Shown piece by piece: positions 4,430 through 41,880 of a stretch of 64,000 bases of DNA. This DNA comes from a virus. Location: the IMG/VR virus record IMGVR_UViG_3300028376_000003, positions 77,528 to 141,527 of that record. One strand, written 5' to 3'. How positions within the stretch are numbered: position 1 is the first letter of the stretch; every line of letters starts with the position of its first letter. Below the pieces are notes generated by a model. It ran no database searches and was not told the origin of the DNA. It saw only the letters and a program-made list of their open reading frames with translations. A program made the translations under genes and the position numbers.

Positions 4430-4577
4430 ATTATAATTATATTTTATTTATATATTAAAACTATTCCATTTCATATAATTAATGCAATGACAAAAACCTT
4501 ATTAATATTTAAATATTTATATAATTCTTGTTATTGTATTAATTATTTTGCTTATATTTGTTCAAAATAAAAAAAAT

Positions 4578-6416
4578 ATGATTAGTAATCTTAAAAAAAG
4601 AATTGTAGAAGCCAATGATGCTTATCGATTAGGTGTTCCTATTATGTCGGATAAAGTATATGATGGTTTAGTTGATGAATTAAGTAAACTATCACCAAGT
4701 GATGAATTACTTACAAAGATAGGACACGCAACAGAAGATGAAAGTCGAAAGCAAAAACTTCCTATTGTAATGGCATCTATGAATAAGATAAAAACAATAG
4801 AAGATATTGACGATTGGTCTAGACTTAGGGATGTCCCCAAATCTACATTGGTTATACTAACCCCTAAATATGATGGTCTAGCACTTTGTGTTGACGAGAG
4901 TAATGGGGATGCATACACAAGAGGGGATGGTATTGTTGGTCAAAAGTCAAACGAACACTATGACCTCATAGGAAATAAGCTTATATCTAATGAAAGTTTA
5001 TTTCAATATACTTATGGTGAGGTGATGATAGCCAAAAGAGTATTCACTGATAAGTACTCGACACAGTTTGCAAATCCACGAAATCTAGTTGCTGGATTAT
5101 TAAATTCTAAAACACCTACTGATAAATTAAAAGATTGTAAATATATAAAGTATGGGATATCTAATGAATTTAGACCACACTTTCAAAGTAAAAAGCAAGT
5201 TATAGAATTCTTAAATAAAAACCAAGAATCAAAAGTTAAATATAAAATATGTAGGATATCCGACATAACAGAGGATTTAATGATTGAGTTATTCAAAGAA
5301 TGGTCTGAAGAATTTGAAATTGATGGTATTATAATAGAGGTAAATGATTTGAACCACCAAAGAGTTTTGGGTAGAGAGACTTCTTCTAAAAATCCAGTCT
5401 TTGCTAGAGCATTTAAGCATAATAGTTTTGAACAGACTGCCACAACACAAGTATTAGACATGACTTGGAATGTTTCAAAACATGGCTTAGTAAAACCTAT
5501 TGTAAATATAAACCCTGTTCAACTTGATGGTGTTAAAGTATCTAATGTAACTGGTAATAATGCAAGATTTGTAAAGGAAATGGGTATAGGCATAGGTGCA
5601 GTTATAACCATTAAAAGAAGTGGTATGGTTATACCTCTTATAGTTGATGTATTAGAAAGAGTTGATTTTGAAATACCTCTAATAGAAGGCAGCGAACTTG
5701 AATGGGATGAAAACGGGATAGAACTTATTACGAAGACTGAAACTGATGAGCAAAAAATTAAAAAAATTATAGCATTTTTTGAAATACTAGGTACTGATAA
5801 TGTATCTGATGGTACTATTAGACAACTATGGGATGCTAATTATAGAAGTATTAAAGATGTTCTAAGCCTATCAATAGATGATTTATTACAAATTGATAGA
5901 TTTGGCAAGAAAAAAGCTGAAAAAGTATATAATTCTTTTAAAAAATCAGTTACTGATGTTAGGCTTAGCAAATTGCAACATGCCACTGGTATATTCAAAG
6001 GCTTAGGGTCTAAGAAGCTAGCACTTCTAGAACATTTTAAACATAGACCAAGTGTTGAAGAAGTTAAAGCATTAGAAGGCTTTGCAGACACTAGTGCTAA
6101 TGTATATGTAGATTCGTTTGATGTGTTTTTTGAATTTATTAAAGACCTACCAGTAACTATAAGTTATGAAGATAAGAATATTGAATCTGAAAATCTTAAA
6201 GGAAAGTCATTTGTTTTTACTGGTGTAAGAAGAAAAGATTTAAATGAAATAATCGAATCTAATGGTGGTAAGGTAAGCACATCTGTCTCTAAGAACACTA
6301 CATACTTAGTAGTGAAGGAATTAGGAAGCGGTTCTTCAAAGGAGGTGAAGGCTACTAGTTTAGGAATAGAGATTTTGAGTGTAGAGGGATTGGAAAAAAT
6401 CTTAAACGAAATATAA
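4578..6416 (+). CDS. ligA: NAD-dependent DNA ligase
   Basis: PKYDG adenylation motif, TRGDG, NPRN, OB and HhH segments, C-terminal BRCT (SFVFTG...VSKNTTYLV). ATG at 4578 preferred. Confidence 0.95.
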   Translation: MISNLKKRIVEANDAYRLGVPIMSDKVYDGLVDELSKLSPSDELLTKIGHATEDESRKQKLPIVMASMNKIKTIEDIDDWSRLRDVPKSTLVILTPKYDGLALCVDESNGDAYTRGDGIVGQKSNEHYDLIGNKLISNESLFQYTYGEVMIAKRVFTDKYSTQFANPRNLVAGLLNSKTPTDKLKDCKYIKYGISNEFRPHFQSKKQVIEFLNKNQESKVKYKICRISDITEDLMIELFKEWSEEFEIDGIIIEVNDLNHQRVLGRETSSKNPVFARAFKHNSFEQTATTQVLDMTWNVSKHGLVKPIVNINPVQLDGVKVSNVTGNNARFVKEMGIGIGAVITIKRSGMVIPLIVDVLERVDFEIPLIEGSELEWDENGIELITKTETDEQKIKKIIAFFEILGTDNVSDGTIRQLWDANYRSIKDVLSLSIDDLLQIDRFGKKKAEKVYNSFKKSVTDVRLSKLQHATGIFKGLGSKKLALLEHFKHRPSVEEVKALEGFADTSANVYVDSFDVFFEFIKDLPVTISYEDKNIESENLKGKSFVFTGVRRKDLNEIIESNGGKVSTSVSKNTTYLVVKELGSGSSKEVKATSLGIEILSVEGLEKILNEI

Positions 6417-11816: not shown

Positions 11817-11951
11817 ATCATATATATTAAAATAATATCTTTGTTAATTATATCTTAAAAATAGTGTGTTAAATTAATACATTTCATATATTTGTATAAT
11901 AAATATCAAAAGAGACAAAACTTTTTTAATATATAGTATATAAACATAAAT

Positions 11952-12024
11952 CGCGGGGTAGAGCAGTAGGTAGCTCGCTAGGCTCATAACCTAGAGGTCG
12001 TTGGTTCGAGTCCAACTCCCGCTA
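11952..12024 (+). tRNA. tRNA-Met(CAT), initiator-like
   Basis: CGCGGGG start with unpaired 1:72; anticodon arm ctagg-CTCATAA-cctag; GGTTCGAGTCC. Confidence 0.9.
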
Positions 12025-12044
12025 CAAATAAATAAATAAATAAA

Positions 12045-12128
12045 ATGAATACTTTTACTAACATAGAATATTATTATGAAGAATCTGAACGAAAACGCTC
12101 GGCTAGTCTTTTGATGTCTATAATGTAA
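12045..12128 (+). CDS. Leader peptide 1 (MNTFTNIEYYYEESERKRSASLLMSIM)
   Basis: GAA TAT TAT TAT GAA GAA TCT GAA run upstream of a terminator and tRNA-Tyr/tRNA-Glu. Confidence 0.8.
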   Translation: MNTFTNIEYYYEESERKRSASLLMSIM

Positions 12129-12143
12129 ATTAAATTATAGTAT

Positions 12144-12181
12144 AAAAAAAACCCAGTCTAGTAATATAGACTGGGTTTTTT
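12144..12181 (+). terminator. Intrinsic terminator / attenuator 1
   Basis: ACCCAGTCTA-loop-TAGACTGGGT followed by a T tract. Confidence 0.85.
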
Positions 12182-12194
12182 GTTTTAAAAATAT

Positions 12195-12277
12195 GGGGGT
12201 AATATGGCACAGGTAGTCATGTCGGTCTGTAAAACCGATTCCGAAAGGTATTGTGGGTTCGAGTCCCACTACGCCCA
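12195..12277 (+). tRNA. tRNA-Tyr(GTA)
   Basis: tcggt-CTGTAAA-accga, long variable arm, T loop. Confidence 0.85.
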
Positions 12278-12287
12278 CTTAGTACAT

Positions 12288-12360
12288 GCTCCGTTCGTCT
12301 AGTGGACTAGGACCCCAGGCTTTCAACTTGGTAACGGGAGTTCAATTCTCCCACGGAGTA
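12288..12360 (+). tRNA. tRNA-Glu(TTC)
   Basis: ccagg-CTTTCAA-cttgg; acceptor stem pairs. Confidence 0.9.
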
Positions 12361-12442
12361 CTAGTTTTAATATTGTTTAAAATAGGATTATAATAATATA
12401 ATGCTTATATTTGCCTATTATTTAATTTTAAAAAGCTTTTAA

Positions 12443-12613: not shown

Positions 12614-12832
12614 ATGGTTTTAAAAATAGAGATAGAAGGAATTGGCGAATTCGACATAAAACATGATTTGTTACATCGAGGTAATCGACCAAGACTGAAA
12701 ACTTACCATAAAGGGATATTTAGAGAAGTATCTTTTAATAGTTTTGAAGACTATCTAAATCCTACCTATCAGAGAGGATTTGATTATGAAGGAACAGAAA
12801 TACAGATTAAAATTTTAGAAAATACAGATTAA
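12614..12832 (+). CDS. Hypothetical protein
   Basis: ORF packed behind the previous gene. Confidence 0.5.
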   Translation: MVLKIEIEGIGEFDIKHDLLHRGNRPRLKTYHKGIFREVSFNSFEDYLNPTYQRGFDYEGTEIQIKILENTD

Positions 12833-12879
12833 TTTAAGAGGGAGAGTAAACTTTTAATATATAGTGTAATATAACAATT

Positions 12880-12954
12880 ATGAGAACAATTAATAACATA
12901 GCAATAATAGCGATAGGCAAAGGGAAAACTCATTGGCTGGGAATTGTTATGTAA
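12880..12954 (+). CDS. Leader peptide 2 (MRTINNIAIIAIGKGKTHWLGIVM)
   Basis: ATA GCA ATA ATA GCG ATA GGC AAA GGG run; contains TGGCTGGG complementary to the terminator 5' arm. Confidence 0.85.
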   Translation: MRTINNIAIIAIGKGKTHWLGIVM

Positions 12955-12977
12955 TTAATTTAATTATAAATTATCAT

Positions 12978-13006
12978 AAACCCAGTCAGAAATGACTGGG
13001 TTTTTT
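12978..13006 (+). terminator. Intrinsic terminator / attenuator 2
   Basis: AAACCCAGTCA-GAAA-TGACTGGGTTT plus T tract. Confidence 0.9.
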
Positions 13007-13020
13007 ATTTTATTATAAAT

Positions 13021-13094
13021 TGGTATGTAGCTTAGATGGTAAAAGCACATGGCTTATATCCATGAGATAGTGGGTTCGATACCCATCATACCAA
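13021..13094 (+). tRNA. tRNA-Ile(TAT)
   Basis: catgg-CTTATAT-ccatg; acceptor tggtatg/catacca. Confidence 0.85.
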
Positions 13095-13102
13095 CAAAAT
13101 AA

Positions 13103-13176
13103 GCAGGTAACGCATAAGTGATGGTGCACTAGCCTTCCAAGCTAGAATAGAATCGGTTTGATCCCGATTACCTGCT
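13103..13176 (+). tRNA. tRNA-Gly(TCC)
   Basis: ctagc-CTTCCAA-gctag. Confidence 0.8.
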
Positions 13177-13187
13177 CGATATAAAAT

Positions 13188-13261
13188 GCAAATGTAGCTC
13201 AATTGGCTAGAGTGTCTGATTTCCATTCAGAAAGTTGTAGGTTCGAATCCTATCATTTGCT
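13188..13261 (+). tRNA. tRNA-Gly(TCC)
   Basis: tctga-TTTCCAT-tcaga; canonical D and T arms. Confidence 0.9.
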
Positions 13262-13268
13262 CATTAAT

Positions 13269-13346
13269 GGGGGATTAGCTCAGTCTGGTCGTAAGCGATA
13301 GCTTTGCAAGCTGTGTCATACATCGGTTCAAATCCGATATCCTCCA
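13269..13346 (+). tRNA. tRNA-Ala(TGC)
   Basis: atagc-TTTGCAA-gctgt; G3:U70 pair in gggggat/atcctcc. Confidence 0.88.
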
Positions 13347-13638
13347 CAGCTTAATTAAAAAAAACAATAATTATAGAAGATTTGAGTGCGAGATAGATAG
13401 AGAGAGGAGTAATTACTAAATTTGCATCAGATGAATTGGAGAAGTTGTCTAAAAATCATCAGGCTAGAAAATATCAAAGCTTCACTATAGATAGGTGAGT
13501 TGTTGATATTGTGGACATGTCACCGATTTCTAAGCTAACAAATTCAGTAGATGTGATAGTTTATGGTGGTGATTCATTAATGGAGATTTCTTAGAAACAT
13601 ATTAATAATATATATATAGAGAAAATGTACATATTATT

Positions 13639-14394
13639 ATGATTATAAGATTTAGAAGTAGAGGAGAAAAAGTTAAGGATTTACAAAACTTGTTAGGACT
13701 AAAACCTGATGGTATATTTGGTCCTAACACTTTGAAAGCTTTGAAGAATTTTCAAAGAGATAATGGATTAAGCGTAGATGGTATAGTTGGTCCTAATACT
13801 TGGTCTGTTTTAGTAAAAAACGATAAGAATAGAATAAGACCAATTTACGATGTTGATCTAAACGAAGAAGATTCTGTATCTGATCCAGAGTGTATGTTCT
13901 GTGTAGAAGATATTGAGGAAACACAACCTTTGTCCCCTAGTACAAGGGAACTTATAAACCTAATAGAATCTAGTGATATTACTAGGAATATAAAAAGGCT
14001 TGTTTTCCATTGTACTGCAACATCTCAAAAAGCTACTGTATCTGCCATTGTGAATTATTGGAAGAATACACTTGGGTGGCGTTCACCAGGTTATCATATA
14101 ATTGTTAGGCCAGATGGAACTTGGAATCAACTACTAGACTTTAACAGAGTCTCTAATGGTGTTCGTGGTATCAATTCTACTACTATAAATATATCATATA
14201 TTGGTGGTGTTGACCGAAATGGTAGAGCATTGGATAATAGAACTAAAAAGCAAAAGGATGTCTATGAAACCATTTATAGAGCTTTTAAGCATAAATTACC
14301 TAGAATAACATTTCATGGACATAATGAATTTTCATCAAAAGCATGTCCATCTTTTAATGTTAAAAATTGGATAAAGTCTTTAAGAGTAATTTAA
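13639..14394 (+). CDS. Endolysin: peptidoglycan-binding domain plus N-acetylmuramoyl-L-alanine amidase
   Basis: DGIFGPNT/DGIVGPNTW repeats; HCTA, GYH, GHNE..KACPSF zinc-amidase motifs. Confidence 0.9.
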   Translation: MIIRFRSRGEKVKDLQNLLGLKPDGIFGPNTLKALKNFQRDNGLSVDGIVGPNTWSVLVKNDKNRIRPIYDVDLNEEDSVSDPECMFCVEDIEETQPLSPSTRELINLIESSDITRNIKRLVFHCTATSQKATVSAIVNYWKNTLGWRSPGYHIIVRPDGTWNQLLDFNRVSNGVRGINSTTINISYIGGVDRNGRALDNRTKKQKDVYETIYRAFKHKLPRITFHGHNEFSSKACPSFNVKNWIKSLRVI

Positions 14395-15970: not shown

Positions 15971-17206
15971 ATGAATAACACATCAATTATAGATTCATTT
16001 ACTGAGCTTAAGTCAGACAAAATGATTAATAAAATAGAGATAATGGAAATCCTAGACTCTGTTTTTAGATTTGAGTTTAGAAAAAAATATGATACAGATG
16101 AAAACTTTGATATAATTCTAAACCCAGATAACGGAGATTTAGAAATATGGCAAAACAAAATCGTTGTACAAGATGGCGAGGTTGAAAACCACAATACTGA
16201 AATAGAAATTTCAGAAGTTCTTAAGGTGGAGTCAGATTTTGAAATAGGGGAAGAATATCCACAAGAATTCAAAATATCAGAATTAGGAAGAAGATCTATA
16301 TTAAGTTTAAGACAGAATCTAAAGGCTAGAATAAAAGACTACGAAAATAAATCAACAATAGAGAAGTTTGAAGATATGATTGGATATATTTTCAATGCCG
16401 AAGTCCATCACATAAAAAGAAATATGGTTATATTACTAGATGATGAGGGTATTGAAATTTGTTTACCAAAAGATAATCAGATACCTGGTGAGTTTTACAG
16501 AAAAGGTGATACAATATCATTTGTGGTAGAAGAAGCTGAAATTAGAAACAATAAGCCATACATTATTGCATCAAGAACATCAAGTAAGTTTCTAGAAAGA
16601 ATAATGGAACAAGAAATACCTGAAATATTCGATGGTCTAATAAATATAAAGAACATAGTTAGAGTACCTGGTATTAAAGCTAAGGTAGCAGTGGAAACAT
16701 ATGATGATAGAATTGATCCTGTTGGAACTTGTGTTGGTAGTAGAGGAAGTCGAATAATGGCAGTTACTAGAGAGCTAAATGGTGAGAGTATAGATATCAT
16801 AAGCTACACAAATAATATGGATTTATATATAACTAGGTCGTTAAAACCAGCCGTTGTTAAATTTATAAAGGTAGAAGATGGTAAAGCTGACGTTCATTTA
16901 AATGGTGAAGATATTGGTAAGGCTATTGGTAAGAAAGGTTCTAATATAAGATTAACTAGCTTACTTACTGGTCTAGAAATAAATCTTATAAATGATGAGC
17001 AAGCTACAGAGGAAGATATAGATCTTATGGAATTTTCTGATGAAGTTGATTTATGGGTAATAAATGAATTTAAAAAAGCTGGTATAGATACTGCTAAATC
17101 ATTACTATCTTATGGTTTTAGTGAACTTGTAAATATGACAGATTTAGAGGATGTGACTATTGAGAAGATAATAAAAATAATCAAACAAGAATTTGTTGAT
17201 AGTTAA
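15971..17206 (+). CDS. nusA: Transcription termination/antitermination factor NusA
   Basis: N-terminal domain, S1, KH domains (EIPEI, IDPVGTCVGSRGSRI, AIGKKGSNIRL). Confidence 0.95.
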   Translation: MNNTSIIDSFTELKSDKMINKIEIMEILDSVFRFEFRKKYDTDENFDIILNPDNGDLEIWQNKIVVQDGEVENHNTEIEISEVLKVESDFEIGEEYPQEFKISELGRRSILSLRQNLKARIKDYENKSTIEKFEDMIGYIFNAEVHHIKRNMVILLDDEGIEICLPKDNQIPGEFYRKGDTISFVVEEAEIRNNKPYIIASRTSSKFLERIMEQEIPEIFDGLINIKNIVRVPGIKAKVAVETYDDRIDPVGTCVGSRGSRIMAVTRELNGESIDIISYTNNMDLYITRSLKPAVVKFIKVEDGKADVHLNGEDIGKAIGKKGSNIRLTSLLTGLEINLINDEQATEEDIDLMEFSDEVDLWVINEFKKAGIDTAKSLLSYGFSELVNMTDLEDVTIEKIIKIIKQEFVDS

Positions 17207-24238: not shown

Positions 24239-24267
24239 AAATAAATTTAAATCTTTTTAAAAAACAC

Positions 24268-24380
24268 TTGTGAGAAACAAATATTAGTTATATATTTGCA
24301 CAGAACCTAAAATAATTTAAACTTTTAGTAAAAAAAAGAATATAAATAACCAAAGGAAGAAATAAAATTTAATATATAAT
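24268..24380 (+). promoter_or_regulatory. Stacked host-type, putative middle and putative late promoters
   Basis: TATATTTG (~24291), AACTT-N16-TATAA (~24320-24345), TTAATATATA (~24369); homologous block at 28999-29090. Confidence 0.6.
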
Positions 24381-24384
24381 AGTG

Positions 24385-24504
24385 ATGAAAAATTTAAACC
24401 TAAATACAAATAGAAACTTAACGCTCAATGTGGTGAATATTATGTTATGTAATAGACCATCTAGGGGTTCTAGTGTATTTAATAAATTTCATCTTATGAC
24501 ATAG
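24385..24504 (+). CDS. Leader peptide 3 (MKNLNLNTNRNLTLNVVNIMLCNRPSRGSSVFNKFHLMT)
   Basis: Codons 3-24 use only N,L,T,R,V,I,M,C; contains TCTAGGGGTT antiterminator segment. Confidence 0.85.
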   Translation: MKNLNLNTNRNLTLNVVNIMLCNRPSRGSSVFNKFHLMT

Positions 24505-24526
24505 TGAAATAAAAAATACAAATAAC

Positions 24527-24563
24527 TAAAACCCCTAGAAATGAAAATTCTAGGGGTTTTTTT
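24527..24563 (+). terminator. Intrinsic terminator / attenuator 3
   Basis: AAAACCCCTAGAA-loop-TTCTAGGGGTTTT plus T tract. Confidence 0.9.
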
Positions 24564-24570
24564 GTTTTAT

Positions 24571-24655
24571 GCTAGTGTGGTGGAATGGTAGACACGAGGG
24601 ATTCAAAATCCTTTAATCAGAAATGATTATATGAGTTCAAATCTCATCATTAGTA
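24571..24655 (+). tRNA. tRNA-Leu(CAA)
   Basis: aggga-TTCAAAA-tcctt; long variable arm. Confidence 0.85.
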
Positions 24656-24667
24656 CATATATTACAA

Positions 24668-24741
24668 TCCTCGTTAGCTCAGTGGTCAGAAGCTCTCGTC
24701 TGTTAAACGAAAGGTCGGTGGTTCGAATCCACCACGAGGAG
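24668..24741 (+). tRNA. tRNA-Asn(GTT)
   Basis: tcgt-CTGTTAA-acga. Confidence 0.9.
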
Positions 24742-24749
24742 CAAATAAT

Positions 24750-24831
24750 CGGCATATACCAGCCCAAGCTGATACCTTGGAGAACTGTAGTTGGTAAGTT
24801 GAAAACGTAGGTTCGAGTCCTACTGTGCCGA
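24750..24831 (+). tRNA. Non-canonical tRNA-Ile(GAT)
   Basis: Acceptor cggcata/tgtgccg, anticodon arm ccaag-CTGATAC-cttgg, normal T arm; no D arm at the usual position. Confidence 0.7.
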
Positions 24832-24845
24832 CTTTTATGACACTT

Positions 24846-24930
24846 GTCGGAGTGGTGGAATGGCAGACACGCTGGGTTTAAGCTCCAGTGGGCAGTGATG
24901 TCCGTGAGGGTTCGAGTCCCTTCTCCGATA
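24846..24930 (+). tRNA. tRNA-Leu(TAA)
   Basis: ctggg-TTTAAGC-tccag; long variable arm. Confidence 0.85.
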
Positions 24931-24939
24931 CGAATAAAT

Positions 24940-25029
24940 GCCAGTGTGGTGAAATTGGATGAAACACGCTAGTCTTAGGAACTAGTACCCAAGAGGTAAA
25001 CATTGTCGGTTCGAGTCCGACCACTGGTA
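24940..25029 (+). tRNA. tRNA-Leu(TAG)
   Basis: ctagt-CTTAGGA-actag. Confidence 0.88.
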
Positions 25030-25039
25030 CAAAATAAAT

Positions 25040-25120
25040 GCCTTAGTAGTCCCGATTGTCTTCTAAACAATTAAGGGTAATTGGAAGCTGAAAATATAGG
25101 TTCGAGTCCTATCTAGGGTA
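25040..25120 (+). tRNA. Non-canonical tRNA-Arg(TCT)
   Basis: Acceptor gccttag/ctagggt, attgt-CTTCTAA-acaat, normal T arm; no D arm at the usual position. Confidence 0.7.
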
Positions 25121-25129
25121 CAAATAAAA

Positions 25130-25203
25130 AGTTCTGTAATTCAGGGGTTCAGAATGCTTCCCTTACAAGGAAGAAGTCGTTGGTTCGAATCCAACCAGAA
25201 CTA
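25130..25203 (+). tRNA. tRNA-Val(TAC)
   Basis: cttcc-CTTACAA-ggaag. Confidence 0.9.
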
Positions 25204-25209
25204 CAAAAT

Positions 25210-25281
25210 GTACCTATGACCGAGTGATTTAGGTAGGTGGCTGCAACCCATCGTACGGGGGTTTGAATCCCTCTAGGTACT
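25210..25281 (+). tRNA. tRNA-Cys(GCA)
   Basis: ggtgg-CTGCAAC-ccatc; U discriminator. Confidence 0.85.
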
Positions 25282-25288
25282 CTAATAT

Positions 25289-25361
25289 GCTGACATAGCT
25301 CAATTGGTAGAGCATTTGATTTGTAATCAAAAGGTTGTGGGTTCGAAGCCCTCTGTCAGCT
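25289..25361 (+). tRNA. tRNA-Thr(TGT)
   Basis: tttga-TTTGTAA-tcaaa. Confidence 0.9.
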
Positions 25362-25371
25362 CTGAAAAAAT

Positions 25372-25461
25372 GCACTAGTGGCGAAGTGGATGAAACGCAT
25401 CAGACTTAAAATCTGATACCCTTTGAGGTGAACAACGTGGGTTCAAATCCCACCTGGTGTA
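25372..25461 (+). tRNA. tRNA-Leu(TAA)
   Basis: tcaga-CTTAAAA-tctga; long variable arm. Confidence 0.88.
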
Positions 25462-25465
25462 CTAA

Positions 25466-25551
25466 ATCGCTATGAACAGATGTGGTAATTGTGCTTGGCT
25501 CATATCCAAGTTAGAGAAATCTTATTGTTGGTTCAAGTCCAACTAGCGGTA
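25466..25551 (+). tRNA. tRNA-Met(CAT) (elongator or Ile2) with long variable arm
   Basis: cttgg-CTCATAT-ccaag. Confidence 0.75.
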
Positions 25552-25552
25552 C

Positions 25553-28933: not shown

Positions 28934-29093
28934 AACTCTATATATTAAAAAAGATTATTTTAATTTAAAAAAAACCTTGTATAAACCATTTATTTATATT
29001 ATATTTGCATAGAAATAATATAATTCTAAACTTTTATAAAAAAAAGTCTATAAATAACCATAGAGAGAAATAAAAGTTAATATATAAAACATA

Positions 29094-29198
29094 ATGAAAA
29101 ATTTAAACTTAAACATAGTAGTTAACCCTCAACCCCAAGTTGATATCGATCAGGATTCTGATACGAAAGGTGCTAACTATGTTTTAAATTTAAGTTGA
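29094..29198 (+). CDS. Leader peptide 4 (MKNLNLNIVVNPQPQVDIDQDSDTKGANYVLNLS)
   Basis: CCT CAA CCC CAA GTT GAT ATC GAT CAG GAT TCT GAT run upstream of Asp/Gln/Pro tRNAs. Confidence 0.85.
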   Translation: MKNLNLNIVVNPQPQVDIDQDSDTKGANYVLNLS

Positions 29199-29216
29199 TA
29201 TTTAAATAATAAAAAC

Positions 29217-29256
29217 AAAAACTCGGTTAGTCTTTTAGATTAACCGAGTTTTTTTT
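29217..29256 (+). terminator. Intrinsic terminator / attenuator 4
   Basis: AAAACTCGGTTAGTC-loop-GATTAACCGAGTTTT plus T tract. Confidence 0.9.
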
Positions 29257-29264
29257 GTTTATAT

Positions 29265-29337
29265 AGCTCTGAGGTCAAATGGTTAAGATGTACGTCTGTC
29301 TCACGTAACGGAGTGGGTTCGATTCCCATCAGAGCTG
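29265..29337 (+). tRNA. tRNA-Asp(GTC)
   Basis: tacgt-CTGTCTC-acgta. Confidence 0.88.
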
Positions 29338-29349
29338 CTAATATTAAAT

Positions 29350-29423
29350 TGCCCCATAGTGTAATTGGCTAACACATCTGGTTTTGGTCCAGAAGATTGC
29401 AGGTTCGAACCCTGCTGGGGTAA
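29350..29423 (+). tRNA. tRNA-Gln(TTG)
   Basis: tctgg-TTTTGGT-ccaga. Confidence 0.9.
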
Positions 29424-29432
29424 CAAGTTAAT

Positions 29433-29506
29433 CGAGAAGTGACTAAGGTTATAAGCACGGGTGCATTGGAGGCATCAGTTAGCAGGTTCGATTCCTGTCT
29501 TCTCGA
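29433..29506 (+). tRNA. tRNA-Pro(TGG)
   Basis: ggtgc-ATTGGAG-gcatc; weak D arm. Confidence 0.75.
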
Positions 29507-29518
29507 CAAATTTTTAAT

Positions 29519-29590
29519 AGTCCATTAGTGTAAAGGTTATCATTTCCGACTGTCTCTCGGAAGATAGGGGTTCGAATCCCCTATGGACTG
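29519..29590 (+). tRNA. tRNA-Asp(GTC)
   Basis: tccga-CTGTCTC-tcgga. Confidence 0.9.
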
Positions 29591-29596
29591 CAAAAA

Positions 29597-29670
29597 TGCT
29601 CTATAGTGTAATTGGTTAACACGTCTGGCTTTGGTCCAGGAGATTGTAGGTTCGAACCCTACTGGGGCAA
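29597..29670 (+). tRNA. tRNA-Gln(TTG)
   Basis: tctgg-CTTTGGT-ccagg. Confidence 0.9.
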
Positions 29671-29679
29671 CAAGTATAG

Positions 29680-29752
29680 CGAGGGTGTAGTGTAATCTGG
29701 TAACACACGATGTTTGGGACATCGAATTGCTGTTCGAATCGGACATCTTCGA
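29680..29752 (+). tRNA. tRNA-Pro(TGG)
   Basis: cgatg-TTTGGGA-catcg. Confidence 0.8.
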
Positions 29753-29772
29753 CAAAAATTATAGTTAAAACT

Positions 29773-34498: not shown

Positions 34499-36640
34499 AT
34501 GAATAAAAATCAAATTATGCAAAAAGACAAAGAAGGGAAAGATTACTTAAGAAAAACTATCGATGTGAAAAACTCTATTGCAGATGATGGACCACCAGAT
34601 GAAGATTTTAAAGTCCCTGACAAGAAGAATGGTAAATCTAAGACTCCTGTCCTTGATACATATAGTAGAGATCTTACTAATATGGCAGAAGATGGTAAGC
34701 TAGATCTTATTGTTGGTAGAGATAAAGAAATAGAACGTGTTTCTCAAATTTTATCTAGGAGAAAAAAGAACAATCCTATTCTCATTGGTGAAGCTGGTGT
34801 TGGTAAATCTTCTATTGCAGAAGGTCTAGCACTTAGAATTGTACAGAGAAAGGTAAGTAGAGTTCTTTTTGATAAAAGAATTGTTATGTTAGACTTAGCA
34901 TCTATGGTAGCTGGTACTAAATATAGGGGTCAATTTGAAGAAAGAGTTAAGGCTCTTATGAGTGAAATAGAAGATGAACCAAATGTTATTCTTTTTATCG
35001 ATGAAATTCATACTATGGTTGGTGCTGGTGGAGCATCTGGTAGCCTAGATGCCTCCAATATGTTCAAACCAGCATTAGCACGTGGTGAAATTCAGATAAT
35101 TGGTGCAACAACATTAGACGAATACAGAAAGCATGTTGAGAAAGATGCTGCTTTGGAAAGAAGATTTCAAAAAGTAATCGTAGAACCTGCCACACCAGAG
35201 GAAACTTTACAAATCATAGGAAACATCAAAGATAAATATGAGAAGCATCATAATGTGGTTTACTCACAAGAGGCAATTGAATCTTGTGTTGATCTTACAG
35301 TCAGATATATGAGTGATAGATTCTTACCAGACAAAGCAATTGATGCATTAGATGAGGCAGGATCAAGAGTTCATATCTCAAATATAGTTGTTCCTAAAAG
35401 GATAACTGAAATCGAGAAAAAGATTGAGGATATTAAAGAAGAAAAGAAAAAAGTAATTAGGTCTCAAAAATATGAACAAGCTGCTAGACTTAGAGATGTT
35501 GAGAAAGAACTTGATGCCGAATTAGAATTGGCTAGAGATAAGTGGGAAGAAGATACTAAAAATAACCCACAAGTTGTGTCACAAGAAGATGTTGCACAAG
35601 TAGTATCTATGATAACTGGAGTTCCTGTTAGTAAGGTTGGGCAAAAAGAAAATTCTAAATTAGCCAAAATGTTTGATGTTATTTCAAATAACGTTGTTGG
35701 TCAAGACAAAGCAGTTAAAAAAGTAGTACAAGCTATACAGAGAGGTAGAGTTGGTATGAAAGATCCTAACAAGCCAATTTTCTCAGGAATACTAATTGGT
35801 AATAGTGGAGTTGGTAAAACTGAATTGGCTAAACAAATTGCTAAGTATATGTTTGACTCAGAGGATTCTATTATTCGTTTAGATATGTCTGAATACATGG
35901 AGAAAGTCTCCCTTACTAGAATCCAAGGTTCTGCACCTGGGTATGTTGGATATGAAGATAGTAATGTATTGGATAAGGTAAGGAGAAAGCCTTACTCTGT
36001 TATTCTTTTTGATGAAATTGAGAAAGCCCACCCTGATGTTGTCAATCTATTTTTACAAATGTTAGATGATGGAGTTGTAACAGATTCACATGGAAGAAAA
36101 GTATCTTTTAAGAATTGTGTTATTCTGATGACATCAAACGTTGGTACTAGAAAGGTTAAGAGTTTTGGAACTGGACTAGGCTTCTCAACAAAAACATCAG
36201 TTGAGAAAGAACACAATAAAGTTAAAGCTATTTTACAAAAGGAATTAAGTGTGGCTTTTCCACCAGAGTTTATCAATAGATTAGATGATATTATCTACTT
36301 CAAAGATTTGGACAGAGATGACATTATGAAGATTGTTGAACTTGAAATTACTAAGACACTTAAAAGAGGTTCTGATATTGGATATAATCTAATTGTAACA
36401 GATGAATTGAAGGAACACCTTCTAGATGTTGGTTATAACTTAGATAGTGGTGCTAGACCTCTTAAAAGAGCTTTACAGACTTGGATTGATGATTATGTAA
36501 CAGAGTTTATCATCCAAGAAAGTCCTAAAGAGGGTTCTACACTAACAATTAGCTATGATAAAGATTTGGATGAGTCAGTAGTTAGTCTTGGTAAGAAAAG
36601 AAAGAAGAGAGTTTCTAAGCCCAGGGACGAAGAAATTTAG
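34499..36640 (+). CDS. clpC: ClpC-type AAA+ unfoldase lacking the Clp_N domain
   Basis: Two Walker A motifs (GEAGVGKS, GNSGVGKT), UVR coil (QKYEQAARLRD), RFLPDKAID, GARPLKR. Confidence 0.92.
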   Translation: MNKNQIMQKDKEGKDYLRKTIDVKNSIADDGPPDEDFKVPDKKNGKSKTPVLDTYSRDLTNMAEDGKLDLIVGRDKEIERVSQILSRRKKNNPILIGEAGVGKSSIAEGLALRIVQRKVSRVLFDKRIVMLDLASMVAGTKYRGQFEERVKALMSEIEDEPNVILFIDEIHTMVGAGGASGSLDASNMFKPALARGEIQIIGATTLDEYRKHVEKDAALERRFQKVIVEPATPEETLQIIGNIKDKYEKHHNVVYSQEAIESCVDLTVRYMSDRFLPDKAIDALDEAGSRVHISNIVVPKRITEIEKKIEDIKEEKKKVIRSQKYEQAARLRDVEKELDAELELARDKWEEDTKNNPQVVSQEDVAQVVSMITGVPVSKVGQKENSKLAKMFDVISNNVVGQDKAVKKVVQAIQRGRVGMKDPNKPIFSGILIGNSGVGKTELAKQIAKYMFDSEDSIIRLDMSEYMEKVSLTRIQGSAPGYVGYEDSNVLDKVRRKPYSVILFDEIEKAHPDVVNLFLQMLDDGVVTDSHGRKVSFKNCVILMTSNVGTRKVKSFGTGLGFSTKTSVEKEHNKVKAILQKELSVAFPPEFINRLDDIIYFKDLDRDDIMKIVELEITKTLKRGSDIGYNLIVTDELKEHLLDVGYNLDSGARPLKRALQTWIDDYVTEFIIQESPKEGSTLTISYDKDLDESVVSLGKKRKKRVSKPRDEEI

Positions 36641-39630: not shown

Positions 39631-41880
39631 TTAAATAATCTTTTTAATTATCCCTAGCCTATAGTCGTAAGAGAAATTAATAGCTATATAGGGTGATTTA
39701 TCTAACCTAGCTTTTCTTCTAAGATCGTCTATTTTAATATTTTTATAATGTTTATTACTATTTATACCATAATTATATTTATACCCAGAAGTAGGTGATG
39801 ATATATTTTTTATTATTTTTATCATCTTACCTACCGAAATGGCGGTACCACCTTCATTAAAATCTTTATCAAAACTATCGTACATGCTCTTGGTGAATGG
39901 ACCAACCCATTTGCCTTTAACGTCCTGTACTATAAAAAATACTTCTGAACCGTTGCTTCTAAGTGGGTTAGAATTTGCCGACATATAACTTGGTGGTGTT
40001 GTGTTATAATGCTTGACTGGGTATATATTGTTACTCGAACTTTCATTACTTTGATGAAGACTGTCATCTATGTAATCTACTATTTCAGTATTATTTGTAA
40101 TATTAAAATCATTATAATGTACATATATCTCGTCAAGTGTTAAGGAACTACCACTCAATAATTTTAAATGATCAACCCAAAGTTTTCTTAAACTCTCATT
40201 ATATTTTATATCAACGACATAGCCATTTGATGTGGTGGGACAAGTGTCTATAATATTTATAGTAGCAGTTTTATTCCGACCCCATCTGTTACATCTTCCT
40301 ATCCGTTGTAATGTGGATTCTGGGGATAATGGTATCTCATATAGATTATTAAAAGATATATCAAGAGCCGCTTGTAAAATAAGTGTTGATATGTAAGGCT
40401 TTCTGTTAGTTGTTTTAGAATCCTTACCATAATCCTTTAATAATTTATCAAACATCTTTAATTTATCACCTTCTATGAAATTAGAGTGTATTAATATAGC
40501 ATCTGTTAACTCCTTTGCAATTTCTTGGGATTCTTTTATTGAGTTAACAAATAATATCTCATCGTTTGATATTGTACTAGGTATCTTATTTATAATATTA
40601 ACTTTATATTCTTTCTTATGTATAGAAGGTAAGTGGTTTTTTCCATTAGGTATAATCTTAGTTTTGTTTGAATTAGTAGTCCACAAATGGCTTATATCGA
40701 TGGGTGTAGCACTTAATAACAAAGTTCTAGAATCTGTCTTTATGTTTCTAACTCTCATAAGGTTTATAAAGAGGCTAAATATAGGTAAATCAGTTACATT
40801 TTCATGATACTCATCAAATATAACATCACTATGTATTATAAAATACATAAGAGACATGTCTTTACCAGCATTACTATATGGTCTTAGATAATAATCAATG
40901 TTTGTAATAATGATATCTGCTTCTTTTCCTTCTCCATTAAAGCTTGACTTTTGAACCTTCCCAGCATACCTTAGTTCTATATTTACTTTCTTTTCAGAGT
41001 CTTCTAATTCTTTTACAATAGAATAGTATGTTGATATTGCTATATTATTTCTAGGACATACCCACAATAACTTTTTATCTGACTTCTCACTCCACATAAG
41101 ACCTAACATAGTTTTACCAAATCCTGTAGGTGCTTTAATTATTGTAGTTTTATCCTCATCCTTAATATCATTTATAATCTTTTTTTGCTCTTTGAATCTT
41201 TTGTCGTCAGGGAAGTGACAAACTTCAAATAAGAACTTGTTTGCTTTTTTAAGATTTATATCATCAGCACCAGATATAGTTCTATCAGAATAAACTAATA
41301 TCATTCTAATTAATGTTATATCTCGGTTGAGGTTGTCTGTTTTTTCTTTCCTATCTTTGTTAAATAAAAAGTAATCAGGTCTAGTATTGTTATTTTTTTT
41401 AGGATTATTAATGATATACTTACTGTCAATTAGTTTACCAAGCTCTTTCTTCATGGTATCTATATCACTAGATGGTATACTACCTAAAACATCTTTGGCA
41501 CAAATCCCCTCATTGTCCAAGATACCATGATGCCAATATATTAGATTGGGTATTATGTTTTTACCAACACAATTCTTTATTTCGTTGTCTTTGAAATAAT
41601 TTACATAATCGAAATAAGTATCTACAAAAGCCCATGAAACTTGTTGATGTAAGTACTTGTTTTTATGTTTCTTATCTACTTTCTCTCCATTTATATGTTT
41701 TTGGAAAGAGTCTGTTGACTTCCCAATATCGTGTAATAGAGAAGCTACCTTTATGTTTACCATTAAGTGTTCTTTCACATTTGGTAATTTTTTTAATTCT
41801 TTCACAGCCTTATCACTGACTTCCTTTGAATGTTCCTCTAATGATATATTATTACCATTATTCGACTTTGCTACTATCAT
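39631..41880 (-). CDS. cas3: Cas3 HD nuclease-helicase
   Basis: LEEHS, LLHDIGK, HHG, APTGFGKT, DEYH, SAT, QRIGRCNR; adjacent to the array. Confidence 0.95.
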   Translation of the reverse strand: MIVAKSNNGNNISLEEHSKEVSDKAVKELKKLPNVKEHLMVNIKVASLLHDIGKSTDSFQKHINGEKVDKKHKNKYLHQQVSWAFVDTYFDYVNYFKDNEIKNCVGKNIIPNLIYWHHGILDNEGICAKDVLGSIPSSDIDTMKKELGKLIDSKYIINNPKKNNNTRPDYFLFNKDRKEKTDNLNRDITLIRMILVYSDRTISGADDINLKKANKFLFEVCHFPDDKRFKEQKKIINDIKDEDKTTIIKAPTGFGKTMLGLMWSEKSDKKLLWVCPRNNIAISTYYSIVKELEDSEKKVNIELRYAGKVQKSSFNGEGKEADIIITNIDYYLRPYSNAGKDMSLMYFIIHSDVIFDEYHENVTDLPIFSLFINLMRVRNIKTDSRTLLLSATPIDISHLWTTNSNKTKIIPNGKNHLPSIHKKEYKVNIINKIPSTISNDEILFVNSIKESQEIAKELTDAILIHSNFIEGDKLKMFDKLLKDYGKDSKTTNRKPYISTLILQAALDISFNNLYEIPLSPESTLQRIGRCNRWGRNKTATINIIDTCPTTSNGYVVDIKYNESLRKLWVDHLKLLSGSSLTLDEIYVHYNDFNITNNTEIVDYIDDSLHQSNESSSNNIYPVKHYNTTPPSYMSANSNPLRSNGSEVFFIVQDVKGKWVGPFTKSMYDSFDKDFNEGGTAISVGKMIKIIKNISSPTSGYKYNYGINSNKHYKNIKIDDLRRKARLDKSPYIAINFSYDYRLGIIKKII

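Follow-up and report, generated by a model that had tools for sequence, protein, structure and literature searches.

The window analysed here covers the last 64 kb, at the 3′ end, of a 141.5-kb contig from a large lake phage. The contig has a G+C content of 28.7%, and all 20 of the tRNA genes that ARAGORN calls on it lie within the window. We located in it a short Ile/Ala/Gly-rich ORF that is followed by an intrinsic terminator and four tRNA genes (module B; Table 1). The ATA codons of this ORF lie at 12898, 12904, 12907, and 12913, accompanied by two ATT codons and by GCA, GCG, GGC, GGG, and GGA. The original prediction had described a control block with four ATA codons plus GCA/GCG and GGC/GGG, all of which are found in this ORF, and had placed a tRNA with anticodon TAT first downstream, on which ARAGORN and Rfam agree. 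Under strict wobble, seven of the nine codons of the regulatory block are readable by the tRNAs encoded 3′ of the terminator, the exceptions being GGC and AAA. Of the 16 codons that follow the start codon, nine encode Ile, Ala, or Gly, compared with 17% expected from 88 long ORFs of the same genome (p = 5e-4). The terminator hairpin consists of 11 pairs, five of them G-C, with a 4-nt loop and a T-tract, and folds alone at -17.1 kcal/mol (z -5.3). A gap of 23 nt separates the ORF stop from the hairpin, and the T-tract is followed after approximately 10 nt by tRNA-Ile. According to ARAGORN and Rfam, the genes under control at module B would be four tRNAs, not biosynthesis enzymes or synthetases. 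Directly after the array lies a gene for an amidase with a peptidoglycan-binding domain, likely the endolysin (13639-14394).

Table 1. Features of module B, its sister modules, and the promoter-like motif, in window coordinates.
Feature	Position	Strand	Remarks
Promoter-like phage motif, AAACTTTT + TTAATATATA	12848-12863	+	16 nt before leader start; putative promoter
TTAATATATA sites, examples	11926, 12854, 24369, 29077
Leader ORF, 24 codons + stop	12880-12954	+	ORF call; Ile/Ala/Gly-rich
Regulatory codon block ATA GCA ATA ATA GCG ATA GGC AAA GGG	12898-12924	+	leader codons 7-15
Predicted inner helix: last regulatory codons (12914-12924) with antiterminator segment (12929-12939)	12914-12939	+	minimum-energy fold, prediction only
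Antiterminator segment, near-copy of terminator 3′ arm	12934-12941	+	pairs with 12981-12988
Intrinsic terminator hairpin + T-tract	12978-13011 (hairpin 12978-13003)	+	nearly invariant in Ile/Gly/Ala family
tRNA-Ile, anticodon TAT	13021-13095	+	ARAGORN; Rfam 67.3 bits
tRNA-Gly, anticodon TCC, weaker call	13103-13176	+	Rfam 44 bits; ARAGORN at relaxed threshold only
tRNA-Gly, anticodon TCC	13188-13262	+	ARAGORN + Rfam
tRNA-Ala, anticodon TGC	13269-13347	+	ARAGORN + Rfam
Module A	12045-12361	+	Tyr/Glu-rich leader 12045-12128, terminator 12149-12178, tRNA-Tyr + tRNA-Glu
Module C	24385-25552	+	39-codon leader 24385-24504, terminator 24529-24559, 11 tRNA genes
Module D	29094-29753	+	Pro/Gln/Asp-rich leader 29094-29198, terminator 29219-29251, Asp/Gln/Pro tRNAs

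The 8-nt pairing proposed between the antiterminator segment and the terminator was recovered with seven Watson-Crick pairs and one G-U pair, and the segment lies, as proposed, just before the leader stop, ending 12 nt before the ORF end. The duplex has an energy of -13.6 kcal/mol (z -4.2), which only 2 of 300 leader shuffles equalled, and none of 25 terminator arms of unrelated sequence gave the leader as good a pairing as its own arm did. The minimum-energy fold of the free transcript (12866-13012; -38.4 kcal/mol, z -5.8) contains the terminator and pairs the end of the regulatory codons to the antiterminator segment. With the 3′ arm left out and the RNA masked up to 12928, as if a ribosome had stalled in the regulatory block, the antiterminator helix became the minimum-energy structure (-15.0 kcal/mol, z -3.5). 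At equilibrium with the 3′ arm present, the terminator beats the antiterminator (pair probability 0.999 vs 0.001), so read-through would need kinetic trapping, as in trp. In these models, the folds of module B behave like those of a four-region attenuator.

We aligned eight members of the Ile/Gly/Ala family. The promoter-like motif is conserved, the terminator is essentially invariant, and the antiterminator is conserved in its pairing without real covariation; 83% of the antiterminator cells are paired in register vs 12-48% when slid, and five of the eight members carry an A-C mismatch in this pairing. An outer helix that would join the conserved prefix of the leader to the end of the ORF was no better than the slid controls in the same alignment. 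At the gathering threshold, Rfam reported only tRNAs in the window and no T-box match; a permissive search of 12780-13030 (E up to 10) likewise gave no T-box, only weak terminator-driven matches far below threshold.

The four tRNA arrays of the window all share the layout of leader ORF, terminator, and tRNA genes. Among the 24 permutations of leaders over arrays, the true assignment is the best, with 36 matching codons vs 26 for the next. The module C leader contains Asn, Leu, Thr, Arg, Val, Ile, Met, and Cys codons, and its array serves those amino acids. An exact 10-nt copy of the module C terminator 3′ arm is located at 24460-24469 and forms a duplex of -17.3 kcal/mol (z -6.4). In family C, 25-39 nt lie between the end of the antiterminator and the stop, and a ribosome terminating there would leave the antiterminator uncovered, which counts against the proposed mechanism. 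For module A, no significant partner of the terminator 5′ arm was found in the leader (z +0.8); by eye, this leader resembles the 5′ arm instead. Upstream of modules C and D, about 140 nt are common to both (24240-24405 and 28950-29115), as are the first seven codons of the leaders, beyond which the two modules differ in regulatory codons, antiterminator, terminator, and array, and they thus appear to be paralogous cassettes whose content has been swapped.

The array of module C includes tRNA genes of unusual build. Two tRNA-like genes on the plus strand, at 24753-24835 (GAT, Ile) and 25040-25120 (TCT, Arg), have no D-arm at the usual place; instead, the anticodon arm is separated from the T-arm by 25-26 nt that include a D-loop-like sequence. 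With its default settings ARAGORN finds neither gene, and Rfam calls only the Arg gene (39 bits); the Ile(GAT) gene was reported by ARAGORN at a relaxed threshold only. In addition, a tRNA of 87 nt with a CAT anticodon (25466-25552, plus strand) has a long variable arm, which is unusual for either Met or Ile2.

All four modules are preceded by TTAATATATA, of which the 141.5-kb genome contains 33 copies, mostly 5-25 nt before an ATG on the coding strand; in the leader family, AAACTTTT and a purine-rich element stand in front of it. This distribution suggests that TTAATATATA is probably a phage promoter that gives mRNAs with a very short 5′ UTR or nearly leaderless ones. Besides the phage motif, TAnnTTTG elements, which we take to be the -7 box of Bacteroidota promoters, occur upstream of modules A, C, and D (11887-11894, 24291-24298, and 29000-29007), while module B has the phage motif only. 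The combination at modules A, C, and D suggests dual promoters, and the TAnnTTTG elements there indicate that the phage host is probably a member of the Bacteroidota. A tRNA-Met gene (11952-12025; L001 3047-3119) follows the promoter motif and precedes both the Tyr/Glu leader and the terminator of module A; by its position, this tRNA would be made regardless of attenuation. The same placement before the Tyr/Glu leader is conserved in LR745206 and in L070.

To survey related phages, tRNA regions were extracted from LR745206, a 635-kb uncultured phage carrying collinear modules, and from five IMG/VR contigs, and further IMG/VR contigs were found by a pattern scan for the terminator. A leader was counted when an ATG-initiated ORF of at least 15 codons ended 15-40 nt before a terminator in front of a tRNA; in shuffled upstream sequence such an ORF arises by chance at about 11% of junctions. 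In this way, 45 distinct modules of leader, terminator, and array were identified on at least 13 contigs of related large phages, LR745206 included, all 45 having been chosen for possessing a leader ORF. Three terminator-like sites before a tRNA have no leader ORF, and at least one of these is located within a tRNA gene. When the first 16 codons of each leader were pooled, 343 matched their own array, compared with 122.4 ± 16.5 under permutation and a maximum of 188 in 5000 permutations. Leader and array change together in individual relatives: a leader with a Gln run precedes three tRNA-Gln genes, a Tyr/Lys leader precedes a Lys-Lys-Tyr-Lys array, a His/Lys/Phe/Trp leader precedes tRNAs for those four amino acids, and Ser/Arg leaders precede Arg(ACG) and Ser tRNAs. 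L061 has its Tyr-Glu array joined to the Ile-Gly-Ala array, behind one leader in which Ile, Glu, Ala, Gly, and Tyr codons are mixed. The cultured Bacteroides phage crAss001 has a similar tRNA-Ile; its tRNA region (L120, 414-7454) contains no strong terminators marking such modules, and the module system is thus not general among Bacteroidota phages.

The 3′ parts of the leaders favour their own terminator arm over unrelated arms by 3.2 kcal/mol (Wilcoxon p = 4e-7), and in 15 of the 45 modules the antiterminator pairing beats 99% of shuffles. Homologous leaders of the Leu/Asn/Val family are followed by four different terminator stems, each of which has a matching copy of 8-11 nt inside the ORF. 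These comparative data strongly support the original reading of the locus as an attenuator made up of leader, antiterminator, terminator, and matched tRNAs.

The layout of a leader and a terminator, taken alone, leaves the sign of the regulation unfixed, and an inverse logic, as in pyrBI, has to be weighed: efficient translation of the leader would promote read-through because a ribosome close behind the polymerase blocks the hairpin, and the array would be switched on when the codons are decoded well. We consider this very improbable. The ORF ends 23 nt before the hairpin in module B and 19-35 nt before it in the relatives, which is too far for a terminating ribosome to cover the 5′ arm. Furthermore, the conserved copy of the 3′ arm inside the ORF fits an antiterminator that depends on stalling, and listing the codons that the tRNAs downstream read would serve no purpose in a feed-forward loop of this kind.

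In metagenome contigs from lakes and salt lakes, the region is present at 83-96% of the words sampled, and two natural variants of the leader occur among such contigs. In one contig, with a depth of 67, a single A is deleted at 12925; the resulting frameshift lies past the regulatory codons and changes the peptide tail, and the ORF stays open with its stop 4 nt further on. In another contig, from another sample, an A-to-G change in the 12925 codon replaces Lys with Glu. Neither variant alters the regulatory codons, the antiterminator, or the terminator. A frameshifted tail in an ORF that stays open is weak evidence, coming from single contigs, that the leader frame and the RNA matter rather than the peptide. 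The same variant bears on the proposal that there is no switch at all, only an ordinary leaky terminator or an RNA-stability element behind a small ORF that is untranslated or encodes a peptide with a role of its own. The thermodynamic dominance of the terminator would suit such an element, but a peptide with its own role should have kept its tail, and the T-tract lies too close to the first tRNA for a promoter to fit in between. The proposal also leaves unexplained both the match of leader and array composition across the 45 modules and the ORF copy of each different terminator arm, and we regard it, too, as very improbable.

We then considered whether the leaders report on particular tRNA species, as the original prediction had claimed in calling the sensing isoacceptor-specific, or whether the attenuator senses only amino acids or the general speed of translation, with ATA being simply the usual Ile codon and GCG, GGC, and GGG serving RNA structure. 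We judge the latter to be unlikely, and the codon counts bear on it from both sides. ATA makes up 64% of Ile codons genome-wide in the phage ORFs, so its share of four out of six in the module B leader carries no signal alone. In the leader cores (the parts outside the conserved N-terminal prefix) of the pooled relatives, ATA accounts for 14 of 19 Ile codons before arrays with Ile(UAU) only, which is not above background (p = 0.27) and is as expected if only the amino acid counts, but for 1 of 16 before arrays containing Ile(GAU) and 6 of 27 before arrays without an Ile tRNA; this avoidance, despite the background of 64%, argues for a codon-level signal. The contrast between the Ile(UAU)-only and the Ile(GAU)-containing arrays has a Fisher p of 9e-5, a value calculated from homologous leaders whose counts are not independent. 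Two arrays that encode both Ile(UAU) and Ile(GAU) have leaders with only ATT and no ATA. Where the array encodes no Ile tRNA, ATC is the preferred Ile codon of the leader core (13 of 27, compared with 6% genome-wide); the leaders concerned are those of L094, L099, L105, L111, L116, and others. These counts suggest an avoidance of slow ATA codons in leaders that are not meant to sense them.

Other amino acids give a similar picture. In the leader family of module B, Ala is encoded by GCG 16 times and by GCA five times, and GCT or GCC is used in none of the 21 cases, against backgrounds of 3% for GCG and 53% for GCT and GCC together. Before arrays with Thr(UGU) only, all 19 Thr codons are ACA or ACG, and the Arg codon class follows the anticodon class, with CGN in 12 of 15 cases before ACG or GCG and in 1 of 12 before UCU. 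None of these three patterns is expected if the leaders count amino acids alone. On the other side, GGC is common and over-used in the leaders though many arrays lack Gly(GCC), which is absent from the module B array and from the whole contig, and the module B leader has, besides this GGC, two AAA codons without a cognate tRNA in the array. Before Pro(UGG) arrays, half of the Pro codons are CCT/CCC and the other half CCA/CCG. The codon background was taken from one genome, and the leaders share ancestry, so the pooled counts overstate the evidence for codon-level sensing. Altogether, codon choice appears to track the anticodons and to favour rare codons ending in G, which are read only by tRNAs with U34 or C34, and it seems tuned partly, not strictly, to particular tRNA species (ATA, GCG, and GGG here; CGN vs AGR in the relatives). 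Isoacceptor-specific sensing is therefore partly supported: the contrast among the pooled relatives stands, and the ATA content of the module B leader, at the genome background, does not. The companion claim that the leader of the array with Ile(GAT) (module C) uses ATT instead is correct as to the codon; it concerns a single Ile codon and a non-canonical tRNA-like gene.

Taken together, module B is probably a ribosome-mediated leader-peptide transcription attenuator that regulates tRNA genes, a reading built on sequence comparison and predicted folds. Transcription would start from the phage promoter motif, and the 24-codon leader would be translated at once, coupled to the polymerase. If ATA, GCA/GCG, and GGG/GGA are decoded fast, the ribosome would reach the stop codon and cover 12934-12941, the terminator would form, and transcription would halt about 10 nt before tRNA-Ile(UAU). 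If the decoding of any sensor codon is slow, the ribosome would stall within 12898-12924 and open the inner helix, leaving 12934-12941 free to pair with the emerging terminator 5′ arm; with the antiterminator formed, RNA polymerase would proceed into the array for Ile(UAU), Gly, Gly, and Ala. Decoding would speed up as these tRNAs are made, which would close the loop and make the module a multi-input homeostat of supply and demand. Without translation, the leader would fold on itself and transcription would terminate. The direction of this response implies that the phage probably makes these four tRNAs only when ribosomes read their codons slowly.

A wider interpretation, to which we would give a little less than an even chance, is that sensing in large phages is directed at single tRNA species and their decoding capacity, and not at amino acids. 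The leaders would then be test ORFs of "hungry" codons (ATA; the rare G-ending GCG, GGG, ACG, and GTG; CGN vs AGR), with the array turned on when any one species is short, and the whole acting as a multi-input controller and possibly as a defence sensor. A shortage might be caused by a mismatch to host codon usage, phage-induced loss of host tRNAs, or host anticodon nucleases. The role and regulation of phage tRNA genes have been debated for decades. If the attenuator reading is true, a phage gauges decoding speed and supplies tRNAs on demand, which would strengthen the case for a limiting tRNA supply during infection, and each leader can be read as a list of the codons that the phage expects to be slow in its host.

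Further genes in the window include one for a 411-aa NusA homolog (15971-17206, plus strand) about 2.6 kb downstream of array B, with matches to NusA_N (5e-23), KH_5 (4e-24), and KH_NusA_C. NusA enhances hairpin pausing and intrinsic termination, and the phage homolog could therefore tune the attenuators. It was not found in five related phage records, an empty result that shows little. We also noted an NAD-dependent DNA ligase (4548-6416), a ClpB-like double AAA+ ATPase (34499-36640), and a Cas3-like DEAD helicase (39631-41880).

A full-text literature search found no description of leader-peptide attenuation of tRNA genes. A Phe-rich leader before E. coli pheV was considered as a candidate; the K-12 sequence upstream of pheV contains none. 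If our reading is true, leader-peptide attenuation extends from protein-coding operons to non-coding RNA genes. The best-known relatives of such a mechanism are the enterobacterial amino-acid attenuators (trpL, hisL, leuL, and pheL), some of which are multivalent, with ilvGMEDA sensing Ile, Val, and Leu and thr sensing Thr and Ile. Like these, the phage modules have a short leader with a block of regulatory codons, several amino acids per leader, a mutually exclusive antiterminator and terminator, and a predicted leader-internal helix that would allow termination without a ribosome. However, the phage modules are phage-borne, without sequence similarity to the enterobacterial leaders or a match to an Rfam leader family, and they would regulate tRNAs instead of enzymes, so that the decoder itself closes the signal. 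In E. coli, the pheST attenuator with its pheM leader controls the mRNA of an aminoacyl-tRNA synthetase; it responds to one amino acid and belongs to a cellular gene. It shares with the phage module leader-peptide attenuation of a component of the translation apparatus, not of a biosynthetic pathway, but its target is a synthetase mRNA, whereas the phage module would control tRNA genes.

In the case of the Salmonella leu leader, Carter, Bartkus and Calvo reportedly showed in 1986 that it contains rare CUA codons and that synonymous choice sets the sensitivity of the attenuator, which is a precedent for the codon-level tuning proposed for ATA, GCG, and GGG in the phage leader. That leader senses leucine supply via a minor tRNA but does not control the gene of that tRNA. 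The T-box also couples conditional termination to the state of a specific tRNA through codon-anticodon pairing, as the phage module would. The two differ, however, in how the tRNA is read: the T-box binds uncharged tRNA directly, without a ribosome, whereas in the phage module a translated ORF would do the reading.
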